Source: an uncultured Acetobacteraceae bacterium
GTDB lineage: Bacteria > Pseudomonadota > Alphaproteobacteria > Acetobacterales > Acetobacteraceae
Direction of reading: 5' to 3'
NCBI GenBank assembly: GCA_964245075.1
Contig: CAXTLC010000009.1
Coordinates: 6,440-70,439, forward strand
DNA length: 64,000 nucleotides
The position numbers and the translations under genes were made by a program. Positions 973-51,160 of the stretch are shown here, one piece after another (within the stretch, counting starts at the first letter, position 1; each line of letters opens with the position of its first letter). The notes under the pieces are model-generated. The model was not told the origin of the DNA and did not search any database. It saw only the letters and a list, made by a program, of their open reading frames with translations.

Positions 973-3615
973 ATGGCCGCCTCGCCCGTGATTGCCCAAT
1001 GGATCGCCGCCAAGGAACAGCAGCCGGACGCGCTGCTGTTTTTTCGCATGGGCGATTTCTACGAATTGTTCTTCGATGACGCCGCCGCCGCCGCTGGCGC
1101 GCTGGGGATCGCCCTCACGGCGCGCGGCGAGCACGAAGGCAAGCCGATCGCCATGTGCGGCGTGCCGATCCATGCCGCCGAGGGCTATCTCGCCCGCTTG
1201 ATCCGGCGCGGCTTCCGCGTGGCTGTCGCCGAGCAGATGGAAACGGCCTCCGCCCGCAGCGGCAAAGCGCCGCTGCGGCGGGAGATCGTCCGCCTGGTCA
1301 CGCCCGGCACGCTCACCGAGGACTCGCTGCTGGACGGCGCGCGGCCGAACCTGCTGCTGGCGCTGGCCCGCGCCGGCCGGACCGTGGGGGCTGCCTGGCT
1401 CGACATCTCCACCGGGCTGTTCGAGACGGAAGCCGTGACGGATCTGCCCGCGCTGCTCGGCCGCCTCGACCCTGCGGAGGTGCTGGCGCCGCTCGACCTG
1501 CCGCTCGGCGATCACGAGGCGCGCCGGGCGCCGGAAACCCTGCCGCCCCCGCCGCTCGCAGCGCGGGCCAGGGTGGCGGACGCATTCGGCGCGGCCACCC
1601 TGGACGGCTTCGGCAGCTTCACCGACGCCGAGGCGATGGCTGCCGCCGCCGCGCTGGATTACGTGCGTGCGACCCAGGCAGGCCGGCTGCCGTCCTTGTC
1701 GCCGCCAGCGCGCCACGAGGGCAGCGGCACGCTGCTGATGGATGCCGCGACCCGCGCCAGCCTGGAGGTGGCTCGGGCGCGCGATGGCGGGTCCGAGCAC
1801 ACGCTGCTGGCCGCGGTGAGCCGCACGCTCACCGCGTCTGGCGGACGCATGCTGGCCGAGTGGCTGTCCGCCCCGCTGACCGACCCGGCGGCGATTGCCG
1901 CGCGGCAGGATGGCTGGGGCTGGCTGGGGGCCGAGCCGTCGGCGGCCGTGGCGTTGCGGCTGGCGCTGCGCGGCGCGCCGGACGCGACGCGGGCGCTCGG
2001 CCGCTTGTCCGTCGGGCGGGGCGGGGCGCGGGATCTGCTGGCGGTCCGGCAACTGCTCGCGGCCGCGACGGCCGCAGCCGACGCGCTCGCCGCAGCCCCC
2101 TCTCCCACCGGCGGGGAAGGACAGGGCGAGGGTGGCGACGCAGACGCTTCGCCCGGCAAGAGCCAACCTCGCCCCGGCCCTTTCCCGCCAGCGAGGCAGG
2201 GCTTGCTCCGCGCGCTCTGCCGTCACCTGCGCGTGGACTCCTCGCTGGGCGAACGCCTTTCTGCCGCCCTGGCCGCCTCGCCCCCAGCCCGGCTCGAAGA
2301 CGGCGGCGCGATTGCCGAGGGCTTCGACGGCGAGTTGGATGCGGAACGCCGCCTGCGCGACGACAGCCGCCGGGTCGTGACGGGATTGCAGCTCGACTAC
2401 GCCCAGCGCTACGGCACGGCCTCGCTCAAGATCCGCCACCACGCCCAGCTCGGCTACGTGATGGAAGTTCCCGCTGCCGCCGCTGCCACCCTGCGCACCC
2501 ACCTGGACCTCACCCTGCGCCAGTCCATGGCGAACGTGGCCCGGTTCACCAGCCCGGAGCTGGGCGAGCTGGACCGCCGCATCAACGATGCCGCGGGCCG
2601 GGCCGCCGCTCGGGAAGCGGCGGTGTTCGCGTCCCTGGTCTCGGAGGTGCTGGCGCTTGCCACCCCGCTGCGCCAGGCAGCCGGCGCGCTTGCCACCCTG
2701 GACGTGTTGCAAAGCTGCGCCCGCCTGGCCGAGTCCGGCGCCTGGTGCCGACCGCAGGTCACGGACGACGCCGCGTTCTGCGTCACCGCGGCCCGGCACC
2801 CGGTGATCGAGGCCGCGCTGCCGGCCGGGACGGCGTTCCAGCCGAACGATTGCGACCTGTCGCCGACCCGGCGCGTGCTGCTGCTGACCGGGCCGAACAT
2901 GGCGGGCAAGTCCACCTTCCTGCGCCAGAACGCGCTGCTGGTGATCCTGGCGCAGGCTGGCCTGCCAGTGCCCGCCGCCACCGCCCGCGTCGGCATCGCG
3001 GACCGGTTGTTCAGCCGGGTGGGGGCGGCGGACGACCTGGCGCGAGGCCGCTCGACCTTCATGACGGAGATGACGGAGACCGCCGCCATCCTGCACGGCG
3101 CCGGGCCGCGCAGCCTGGTCGTCGTGGACGAGATCGGCCGCGGCACCGCCACGCTGGACGGGCTGGCCATCGCCTGGGCGGTGCTGGAAGCGCTGCACTC
3201 GCAGGTCCGCTGCCGTACCCTGTTCGCGACGCACTTCCACGAATTGGCCGGGCTGGGGCAAGCGCTGCCGCAGATGTGCCCCCACGCCATGCAGGTGCGG
3301 GAGTGGAAGAACGACATCGTGTTCTTGCACGAAGTGGGGGAGGGCGCGGCCGGACGGTCCTGGGGCGTGCACGTCGCCAAGATAGCCGGCATGCCCGCGG
3401 CGACGGTGCGCCGGGCCGCTGCGCTGCTCAGCGCGCTGGAACGCGGCAGCGCGGCCGGTCCGGATCTGCCGCTGTTCGCCGGGGTGCCAGCCGCGGAACC
3501 CGCGGCGGACCGGCTGCGCGCCGCGCTGGACGCGCTGCATCCTGATCAACTCTCGCCACGCGATGCGCTGGACGTCCTATATCAATTAAAGAACCTCGCA
3601 CTATCATCGGACTGA
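973..3615 (+). CDS. mutS: DNA mismatch repair protein MutS
   Basis: FFRMGDFYELFF mismatch-binding motif, Walker A TGPNMAGKST, STFMTEM, DEIGRGT, FATHFHEL, SWGVHVAKIAG. Confidence 0.98.
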   Translation: MAASPVIAQWIAAKEQQPDALLFFRMGDFYELFFDDAAAAAGALGIALTARGEHEGKPIAMCGVPIHAAEGYLARLIRRGFRVAVAEQMETASARSGKAPLRREIVRLVTPGTLTEDSLLDGARPNLLLALARAGRTVGAAWLDISTGLFETEAVTDLPALLGRLDPAEVLAPLDLPLGDHEARRAPETLPPPPLAARARVADAFGAATLDGFGSFTDAEAMAAAAALDYVRATQAGRLPSLSPPARHEGSGTLLMDAATRASLEVARARDGGSEHTLLAAVSRTLTASGGRMLAEWLSAPLTDPAAIAARQDGWGWLGAEPSAAVALRLALRGAPDATRALGRLSVGRGGARDLLAVRQLLAAATAAADALAAAPSPTGGEGQGEGGDADASPGKSQPRPGPFPPARQGLLRALCRHLRVDSSLGERLSAALAASPPARLEDGGAIAEGFDGELDAERRLRDDSRRVVTGLQLDYAQRYGTASLKIRHHAQLGYVMEVPAAAAATLRTHLDLTLRQSMANVARFTSPELGELDRRINDAAGRAAAREAAVFASLVSEVLALATPLRQAAGALATLDVLQSCARLAESGAWCRPQVTDDAAFCVTAARHPVIEAALPAGTAFQPNDCDLSPTRRVLLLTGPNMAGKSTFLRQNALLVILAQAGLPVPAATARVGIADRLFSRVGAADDLARGRSTFMTEMTETAAILHGAGPRSLVVVDEIGRGTATLDGLAIAWAVLEALHSQVRCRTLFATHFHELAGLGQALPQMCPHAMQVREWKNDIVFLHEVGEGAAGRSWGVHVAKIAGMPAATVRRAAALLSALERGSAAGPDLPLFAGVPAAEPAADRLRAALDALHPDQLSPRDALDVLYQLKNLALSSD
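2098..2202. repeat. Degenerate REP-like palindromic element inserted in frame in mutS
   Basis: CCCTCTCCCACCGGCGGGGAAGG-ACAGGGCGAGGG ... CCTCGCCCCGGCCCTTTCCCGCCAGCGAGGCAGGG; GGGCGAGG pairs with CCTCGCCC; encodes PSPTGGEGQGEGG...PRPGPFPPARQG. Confidence 0.7.
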
Positions 3616-48667: not shown

Positions 48668-49801
48668 GTGAATTTCGCGATCGTCGGATGCGGCTACGTC
48701 GCTGACATGTACATGCAGACCTTGCCTGGCCTGGACGGGCTGACCCTGCTGGGCGCGTGGGACCGCGACCCGGCCCGCTTGGCCGCGTTCACCGCCTTCC
48801 ACGGCGTTCCGGCCTTTGGCAGCCTGGACGCGCTGCTGGCCGACGCGCGGGTGCAGCTGGTGGTGAACCTGACCAACCCGCGCAGCCACCACGAGGTCAG
48901 CCTGCGGGCGCTGCAAGCCGGGCGGCACGTGTACTCGGAGAAGCCGCTGGCGATGACGATGGCGGAAGCGGCGGAGCTGGTGGCGGAAGCGGAGGCGCGC
49001 GGCCTTGGCCTGGCTGCCGCCCCCTGCAACCACCTCAGCGACGTCGTGCAGGCACTGAAGCGGGAGCTGAAGGGAGGCCGGCTCGGCCGGGTGCTCCTGG
49101 CGCAGGCCGAGATGGACGACGGCATGGTGCACCGGCTGGACTACGCCACGTGGCGCAGCCGCTCCGGCGCGCCCTGGCCCGCGCGCGACGAGTTCGAGGT
49201 CGGCTGCACCATCGAGCACGCCGGCTACCAGATCACCCCACTGGTCTCGCTCTTCGGGCCGGTGCGCCGGGTGACGGCCTGGAGCGCGCTGAGCGTGCCG
49301 GAGAAGGGCGCAGAACTGGGCGCCGTCGTGACCGCGCCCGACCTGTCGTTCGGCGTGCTGGAATTCGACGGCGGCGTGGTGGCGCGGCTGACCAACAGCA
49401 TCCTCGCCCCGAGCGACCGCTCGCTGCGCGTGGTGGGAGAACTGGGCGTGGCCACCATCCCGGATGTTTGGGAGTACCACACGCCGCTGCGCATCACCGC
49501 CACGGGGATGAGCCTGGCCGCACGGGTGTCACGCAAGGTGGAGAAGAGGGTGTCGGCTTTCGCGCCGGGGCTGCTCCTGTCGAACCGGCTGCCGGTGGCG
49601 CATGGGCGGCGGGTGCCGCGCACGCAGGGCGGGCACCGGATGGATTTCAGCCGCGGCATCGCCCAACTGGCGGCGCAACTGGAACGCGGCGCGCCGGCAC
49701 TGGTCGGGCCGGCGTTGGCGCTGCACGTGACGGAGGTGACGCTGGCGCTGCAGTCGCAAGCTGCCGTGGCGCGGGCGGAAGTCATGCGGACATCGGCGTG
49801 A
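48668..49801 (+). CDS. Gfo/Idh/MocA-family oxidoreductase
   Basis: AIVGCGYVA, VNLTNPRSH, HVYSEKPLA; start inferred at GTG. Confidence 0.9.
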   Translation: MNFAIVGCGYVADMYMQTLPGLDGLTLLGAWDRDPARLAAFTAFHGVPAFGSLDALLADARVQLVVNLTNPRSHHEVSLRALQAGRHVYSEKPLAMTMAEAAELVAEAEARGLGLAAAPCNHLSDVVQALKRELKGGRLGRVLLAQAEMDDGMVHRLDYATWRSRSGAPWPARDEFEVGCTIEHAGYQITPLVSLFGPVRRVTAWSALSVPEKGAELGAVVTAPDLSFGVLEFDGGVVARLTNSILAPSDRSLRVVGELGVATIPDVWEYHTPLRITATGMSLAARVSRKVEKRVSAFAPGLLLSNRLPVAHGRRVPRTQGGHRMDFSRGIAQLAAQLERGAPALVGPALALHVTEVTLALQSQAAVARAEVMRTSA

Positions 49802-49833: not shown

Positions 49834-49978
49834 CCCCCTCGCTCACCGGCTCCTAGGAGAGGGCGACATCGCTGACCGCGCATCGCCGAAGGTCCCTTTC
49901 CCTTGGAGGAGCTTGGGCGAGGGGTCTTGCCGATACGCATGGCCGACCTTGCGGCCCTTCCCCGGAGGAAAGGGGGAG
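49834..49978. repeat. Degenerate REP-like palindromic element(s), same family as the mutS insert
   Basis: CCCTTTCCCTTGGAGGAGCTTGGGCGAGGGG ... GGCCCTTCCCCGGAGGAAAGGGGG, preceded by CCCCCTCGCTCACCGGCTCCTAGGAGAGGG. Confidence 0.55.
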
Positions 49979-50005: not shown

Positions 50006-51160
50006 ATGTCCGAGAGCACGACCGCCCCGAAGCCCAAGAAATCCGTCGCCTTGTCCGGCGTCACGGCCGGCAACACCGCGCTGTGCACCGTCGGCCGCAC
50101 CGGGAACGACCTGCATTACCGCGGATACGACATCCTCGAGATCGCCGAAACCTGCGAGTTCGAGGAGATCGCCCATCTCCTGGTGCACGGCACGCTGCCC
50201 ACCGAAGCGCAGCTGCGCGCCTACAAGGCCAAGCTGCACGCGCTCCGCGGGCTGCCCACCGCCGTCCGCAACGTGCTGGAAGCGTTGCCGGCGTCCACGC
50301 ATCCGATGGACGTCATGCGCACCGGCGTGTCGGCGCTCGGCTGCATGCTGCCGGAAAGGGAGGACCACAATCACCCAGGCGCGCGCGACATCGCCGACCG
50401 GCTCATGGCATCGCTCGGCTCCATGCTGCTCTACTGGTTCCATTACGCGCAGAACGGCAAGCGCATCAGGATCGAGACCGACGACGACAGCATCGGCGGC
50501 CACTTCCTCCACCTGCTGCACGGCGCGCCGCCTTCGGCGGAATGGGTGCGGGCGATGCACACCTCGCTGAACCTGTATGCGGAACACGAGTTCAACGCGT
50601 CCACCTTCACCGCGCGGGTGGTCGCGGGCACGGGCGCGGACATGTACAGCGCCGTCACCGGCGCCATCGGCGCGCTGCGCGGCCCCAAGCACGGCGGCGC
50701 CAACGAAGTGGCGCTTGAGATCCAGCAACGCTACGCGAGCCCCGACGAGGCGGAGGCGGATATCCGCCGCCGGGTCGCCAACAAGGAGGTCGTGATCGGC
50801 TTCGGCCACCCGGTTTACACCGTGGCGGACCCGCGCAACGTCATCATCAAGGGCGTTGCCAAGCGCTTGGCCGATGCCGCCGGGGACACCACCATGTTCG
50901 CAGTGGCGGAACGGCTGGAAAGCGTGATGGCGGACGCCAAGCGCATGTTCGCCAACCTCGACTGGTTCAGCGCCGTGTCCTACCGGATGATGCGCGTGCC
51001 GACGGCGATGTTCACGCCGCTGTTCGTCATCGCGCGCACCTCCGGCTGGGCGGCGCACGTGATCGAGCAGCGCATCGACAACAAGATCATCCGTCCGGCG
51101 GCGAACTACACCGGGCCGGAAGACCGAACCTTCGTCCCGTTGGCGGAGCGGACTGCTTGA
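50006..51160 (+). CDS. prpC: 2-methylcitrate synthase
   Basis: [65 protein letters not shown]. Confidence 0.9.

Follow-up and report, generated by a model that had tools for sequence, protein, structure and literature searches.

We analyzed a window of 64,000 nucleotides from an uncultured bacterium of the Acetobacteraceae (contig CAXTLC010000009.1, positions 6,440 to 70,439), in which an imperfect palindrome of 105 bp, at positions 2098 to 2202, lies within mutS, the gene of a mismatch repair ATPase. With a probability of about 80%, we read this palindrome as two decayed, oppositely oriented units of a short nonautonomous repeat of the BoxC/PIT/TMECO type (PIT, potential intrastrand triplex), translated within mutS as a passenger loop. 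The insert is an inverted pair of units of about 43 bp with an unconserved spacer between them and no copy of a 105-bp element, and its decay marks it as old rather than as a recent arrival. It belongs to a dispersed repeat family, it occupies a defined position in frame within mutS, it is absent from relatives, and its peptide is predicted to be disordered. The coordinates of the features are collected in Table 1.

The mutS open reading frame (ORF) is intact and encodes 880 amino acids. Its product scored over the cut-off for five of five Pfam domains, MutS_I to MutS_V, matched the E. coli MutS structures with an E value of about 1e-158, and contained the Walker A motif GPNMAGKST. The palindrome is in frame within the gene, position 2098 being the first base of codon 376. 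It has the sequence CCCTCTCCCACCGGCGGGGAAGGACAGGGCGAGGG-TGGCGACGCAGACGCTTCGCCCGGCAAGAGCCAA-CCTCGCCCCGGCCCTTTCCCGCCAGCGAGGCAGGGC; it runs from CCCTCTCCC, with first base 2098, to GAGGCAGGG-C, with last base 2202. A repeat search found nested inverted repeats, at 2098-2126/2173-2201 (29 nt, 72% complementary) and at 2119-2136/2162-2179 (18 nt, 83%). A 121-nt stretch around the palindrome folded into one long hairpin of -69.4 kcal/mol. Dinucleotide-shuffled sequences averaged -54.6 kcal/mol (z = -3.5), and 1 of 200 shuffles folded equally well. The alignment with the E. coli MutS structure was interrupted at query residues 377-419, corresponding to E. coli residues 390-397. A preliminary description of this DNA had reported a 105-bp palindrome in frame in mutS with the ATPase motifs intact. 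The ORF, the peptide PSPTGGEGQGEGGDADASPGKSQPRPGPFPPARQ-G, the inverted repeats, the five Pfam domains, and the structure matches show that this description was correct.

The insert was then placed in the context of the host genome (G000), which has a size of 4.52 Mb in 167 contigs, a G+C content of 69.5%, and an estimated completeness of about 99%. Partial matches to the 105-mer pointed to a short dispersed unit. This unit consists of a 9-bp C-rich arm, a loop of 3 to 6 nt, a 9-bp G-rich arm, 2 to 3 nt, and a second G-rich block, GGGTGAGGG; it can be written as CCCTCTCCC-loop-GGGAGAGGG-N2-3-GGGTGAGGG, and its extended consensus is aaGCCCTCTCC-loop-GGAGAGGGC-(C/T)(C/T)G-GGGTGAGGG. A census of the genome by regular expression gave 47 hairpins, most of them followed by GGGTGAGGG. 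A covariance model, R1, was trained on 21 units, with the mutS copies left out. It gave 63 matches in this genome at an E value of ≤0.01 and 75 at ≤0.05, in 63 sites. In an unfiltered run over the window, the two halves of the insert were R1 matches number 1 and 2; they lay on opposite strands, 25 nt apart, with their GGGTGAGGG-type blocks facing inward. The E value of the left unit was 2.3e-5 in the window and 0.0016 genome-wide, and that of the right unit was 0.0053 in the window. Seven further sites in the genome are inward-facing pairs of the same architecture, with unconserved spacers of 10 to 50 nt. According to Rfam, the insert region had only subthreshold matches to generic microRNA hairpins (best 24 bits versus a gathering score of 72) and corresponded to no known RNA family.

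The three-block design of the unit is that of the BoxC/PIT/TMECO "intrastrand triplex motif" described by Holder et al. 2015 (PMC4666352), who cite BoxC work from the 1990s and Hoyne/Maher 2000. The TMECO pattern, in which no more than one mismatch is allowed, is 5'-CCCTCNCCC N3-6 GGGNGAGGG N3 GGGNGAGGG; 3610 occurrences were counted across 262 proteobacterial genomes. The motif folds as a purine-motif triplex in vitro and has no linked transposase (PMC4666352). In E. coli K-12 the motifs are "always located intergenically", 5 occurrences are inverted pairs, and TMECO loci in E. coli are associated with local rearrangement (PMC4666352). The pattern had 2 exact and 32 relaxed matches in our genome, for example, CCCTCTCCC-CCT-GGGAGAGGG-CCG-GGGTGAGGG, and 0 to 1 in shuffled genomes. 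Judged by sequence, the repeat family in this genome is the BoxC/PIT/TMECO triplex-motif family, and it is not specifically alphaproteobacterial. Beyond the three blocks, the likeness extends to the CCG second loop known from TMECO type B, to inverted pairs, to the absence of a linked transposase, and to copy numbers in the tens to hundreds that differ widely among close relatives. There are also differences. The host here is a high-GC member of the Acetobacteraceae, the second loop is 2 nt long in many local units, the mutS units have decayed past the published mismatch rule, and the copies in mutS and in one CobG-like gene form part of a translated reading frame, whereas the E. coli copies are reported to be intergenic without exception. 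Formation of a triplex by the mutS copy appears doubtful because its blocks are mismatched. The palindrome had been assigned to a repeat type common in the intergenic regions of alphaproteobacteria. When 80 other genomes from this class were sampled, 16 were positive at an R1 E value of ≤1e-4, with many copies in a few, so that "common alphaproteobacterial element" overstates the distribution.

Several observations weigh against this assignment or against a mobile origin of the insert. The left mutS unit carries 2 substitutions relative to the TMECO pattern and the right unit 4, where the rule allows 1, and the right unit reaches just 19 bits with R1. A genome-wide search with blastn-short found no second full-length copy of the 105-mer, only partial matches; what a count of copies did reveal is that the halves belong to the 63-site family, with 2 sites inside genes. 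A search with Y1_Tnp (PF01797) gave no match in this genome, the control genomes being positive, and we know of no mobilizing enzyme for the repeat family. REP/REPIN elements are short palindromic units mobilized by RAYT (Y1 HUH) transposases. They resemble the present family in that palindromic units occur singly or as inverted pairs making a long hairpin, but the unit here has a third G-rich block and is no simple REP palindrome. A RAYT/REPIN system was rejected because the genome lacks a Y1 transposase gene. We also considered whether the resemblance to the family might be due to chance, the loop being a lineage-specific low-complexity expansion in a GC-rich gene. The units are degenerate, the genome has a G+C content of 69.5%, and Pro/Gly/Ala-rich loops are common in such genomes. 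This explanation was rejected as hardly credible, since the halves are the top two R1 matches in 64 kb (E = 2e-5 and 5e-3) and are inverted relative to each other, as is typical of family pairs, the orthologous inserts of sister species are near-perfect family members of 36 to 47 bits, and 32 pattern matches stand against 0 to 1 in shuffled genomes.

The distribution of the insert was examined across the genus of this bacterium, which takes in Acidisphaera sp. L21 and many metagenome-assembled genomes. Between two conserved anchors, the MutS loop is 7 to 13 residues long in 9 species of the genus, basal members included, and in all outgroups, where its length also varies; in G000 it has 41 residues. 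In 10 species the loop has 18 to 57 residues, and family units within it score up to 47 bits. When the loop was masked and a MutS tree computed, the 10 insert-bearing species all fell inside one subclade of 13 species. Of the remaining three members, G001 retains a left-end scar, AAAAGCCC, and G005 and G006 are clean. Alignment with the MutS of relatives bore out the idea of an added segment, as the insert is missing from orthologues outside this subclade. The inserts themselves differ in architecture. G007 has one perfect hairpin, CCTCTCCCGC-TT-GCGGGAGAGG, G013 has a near-perfect pair (47 and 39 bits), and G016, G017, and G011 have a pair of 30 to 41 bits. The insert of G003 is a pair whose left hairpin loop contains another dispersed repeat of about 60 nt. 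Decayed singles are found in G008, G021, G019, and G022; that of G021 looks like the collapse of a G013-type pair through a deletion between two directly repeated hairpins. R1 found the family in every other genome of the genus, with 3 to at least 150 matches when the best 150 candidates were scored per genome. Copy number varied more than 30-fold within the genus, from 3 to 7 in G024, G001, and G006 to at least 150 in G023, G003, G013, and G016. In G001 and G006, the subclade species with the fewest copies, the mutS site is also scarred or empty.

We propose that a pair with inward-facing GGGTGAGGG blocks entered mutS in the ancestor of the subclade and landed in the loop between two core-domain (MutS_III) helices, at about residues 390-397 of E. 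coli MutS. Only insertions that left the frame open and free of stops would have persisted. In-frame insertions and deletions could then have remodeled the site, giving pair-to-single collapse, nested insertion, scar, and clean loss, and replacement through further insertions at the loop is also possible. In G000, both hairpins have decayed, and the insert is translated as a Pro/Gly/Glu-rich surface loop that is predicted to be disordered.

For the history of the site, we lean slightly toward one ancestral insertion followed by such remodeling. The confinement of the insert to one subclade points to it, as do the left junction AAA-AG(C/T)-CCT-CTC, common to G003, G013, and G007 and hence to both sub-branches, the scar in G001, and the identical GGC-TTG-CTC codons adjoining the right units of G000 and G016. 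Moreover, the site is empty in family-rich genomes that do not belong to the subclade, among them G023 with its 150 or more matches. These observations speak against the view that the mutS loop is an insertion hotspot, with independent or replacing insertions of a still-active element and not one ancestral event, which we nevertheless take seriously without favoring it. The case for a single origin is not a secure one. Support for the 13-species clade is just 83/87. The spacers cannot be aligned between lineages (G000, G017/G011/G016, and G013) and show no resemblance by eye. The hairpin of G000 is read in the frame CCC TCT CCC and that of its sister G007 in the frame CCT CTC CCG, and the two species differ in architecture as well, a pair versus a single perfect hairpin. 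Palindromes have stayed perfect or nearly so in several species, including G007 and G013, although the flanking protein sequence has diverged by about 20%. A hotspot would also fit the difference in copy number between species, and it would fit the recurrence of the nested composite of G003, with its repeat of about 60 nt: the G013 CobG-like gene has this composite, and so do other loci.

To see what the insert does to the protein, a MutS model was computed with AlphaFold2 and a 37-sequence alignment; its mean predicted local distance difference test score (pLDDT) was 83.7, and its predicted template modeling score was 0.80. The insert contributes 34 residues to the core domain (MutS_III), with the frame unbroken. 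Residues 379-407 had a pLDDT of <50 and were modeled as coil without secondary structure, flanked by helices at 352-373 and 410-419, and the adjoining 10-residue blocks averaged a pLDDT of >90. According to this model, the insert forms a disordered coil that joins two confidently predicted core-domain helices. The earlier proposal that a mobile repeat had added about 35 residues to the MutS core held in part: the sequence derives from a dispersed hairpin repeat and adds 34 residues to MutS_III, but it is no 105-bp element and not a recent arrival. The suggested effect on the mutation rate was unsupported. The loop is predicted to be disordered, mutS is intact in all species with every insert variant in frame, terminal branch lengths (0.02 to 0.11 with the insert versus 0.03 to 0.13 without it) are not raised, and an intact mutL is present in this genome, so that there is no sign of a mutator effect. 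Probably, the insert is a tolerated, translated passenger that is harmless and has no role in mismatch repair. A functional insert seems very unlikely to us, whether it modulates mutS expression through a hairpin, triplex, or G-quadruplex in its DNA or RNA or, by being unstable, turns mutS into a contingency locus that switches mutator states. Such a function would be suited by the strength of the hairpin (-69 kcal/mol), by the association of E. coli TMECO loci with local rearrangement (PMC4666352), and by the highly variable length of the site within the genus. Against it stand the intact mutS genes with variants always in frame, the decay of the unit hairpins and triplex blocks in G000, the lack of the insert in 3 subclade species and all others, and the absence of any branch-length acceleration.

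The coding status of all candidate sites was settled by direct translation. In G000, 61 of the 63 sites were intergenic or at gene ends, and 2 were internal and in frame, namely those in mutS and in the CobG-like gene. The latter gene, with a NIR_SIR ferredoxin-like domain, lies outside the window at C12:6900-7814 and carries its in-frame pair at C12:7341-7424 in the interdomain linker. In this pair the GGGTGAGGG blocks point outward. Repeat-derived peptides (LTQPS..RGRG..PLPLGEGRGEG) of variable length occur in this linker in most species of the genus. Three of the 63 sites form the end of a gene: the units at C1:131720-131806, C115:4590-4632, and C38:14347-14390 give the upstream ORF its final few codons together with its stop (…SSPLPKGKGF*, …SSRGRGL*, and …SPSGRGRR*, respectively). 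The repeat family therefore also reshapes C termini. As for stops, a TGA is present in one of the three frames of GGGTGAGGG, and in the third blocks of the G000 mutS units, GGGCGAGGG and CCTCGCCCC, a C replaces the T.

Two other elements deserve mention. The preliminary description had noted a similar element at 49834-49978. It is intergenic, the flanking ORFs ending at 49801 and starting at 50006, but its likeness to the insert found little support, with R1 scores of 12.5 bits (E of about 0.2) at 49887-49927 on the plus strand and 12.6 bits at 49952-49976 on the minus strand; at best it is a very decayed relative of the repeat family. The other element is the dispersed repeat of about 60 nt mentioned above (GGCGGAGATGACCAAGGTTCCGCGGGCGATAGCCCGTGGAATGTCAGCGGA). 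Of 25 genomes of the genus, 20 contain it, alone or nested within the hairpin loop of the triplex motif. Copies lie at about 2915-3011 of L006 (the G003 mutS locus), at G013:C1:3704303-3704387, and at C12:14600-14661 of our genome. It is translated in frame in G003 mutS and in the G013 CobG-like gene (..DQGSAG.SPWNVS..). The nested copy of G003 had no match in Rfam.

Table 1. Position and strand of mutS, the insert and its parts, and a possible further pair in the window
Feature	Position	Strand	Evidence
mutS (MutS1-type mismatch repair ATPase)	973..3615	+	ORF, Pfam MutS_I-V, E. coli MutS structures, Walker A
In-frame insert, 34 codons (residues 376-409), encoding PSPTGGEGQGEGGDADASPGKSQPRPGPFPPARQ	2098..2199	+	Orthologue alignments, AlphaFold2
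Left repeat unit: decayed hairpin CCCTCTCCC-ACCGGC-GGGGAAGG, then third block GGGCGAGGG	2094..2136	+	R1, 28.7 bits
Spacer between units, unconserved among pairs	2137..2161		Alignment of the pairs of the genome
Right repeat unit, inverted and more decayed; reads CCTCGCCCC-GG-CCCTTTCCC-GCCAGC-GAGGCAGGG on the plus strand	2162..2205	-	R1, 19.1 bits
Possible very degenerate pair of the same family, weak	49887..49976		R1, 12.5 and 12.6 bits

Palindromic repeats inside genes are known from Rickettsia, whose palindromic elements (RPE) were reportedly described by Ogata et al. in 2000. RPE and the Wolbachia palindromic elements are selfish repeats located in frame inside housekeeping genes and translated as extra surface loops. 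They are about 100 to 150 bp long and AT-rich, and their hosts are obligate intracellular bacteria with reduced genomes; their presence or absence varies among relatives, and they decay in place. The mutS insert resembles RPE as a dispersed palindromic repeat inside an ORF that keeps the frame and is missing from orthologues. However, the sequence families are unrelated, RPE are longer and AT-rich, the host here has a 4.5-Mb genome with 69.5% G+C, and no more than 2 of the 63 sites lie within a gene. Both the repeat family and in-frame repeats as such were already known; their combination and the series of variants within one genus appear not to have been described before, and a full-text literature search for in-frame BoxC/PIT elements gave nothing beyond Holder 2015.

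Tentatively, the triplex-motif repeats may act in this genus in an RPE-like manner, repeatedly entering, in frame, the loops and linkers of housekeeping proteins, with the core-domain loop of mutS as a recurrent target remodeled by the instability for which such motifs are known. If so, this would be the first case of the triplex-motif family making protein sequence, and in a nonreduced, high-GC genome. The overall addition to knowledge is modest. There is no reason to expect a mutator phenotype from the insert, and a surface loop of MutS tolerates 10 to 50 extra residues. A family whose E. coli copies were reported to be confined to intergenic DNA can ride in frame in essential-type genes. 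Its history at mutS can be read over about 20 sister species as pair, single, nested insertion, scar, and loss, which provides a natural series for asking how triplex-motif repeats move and decay.

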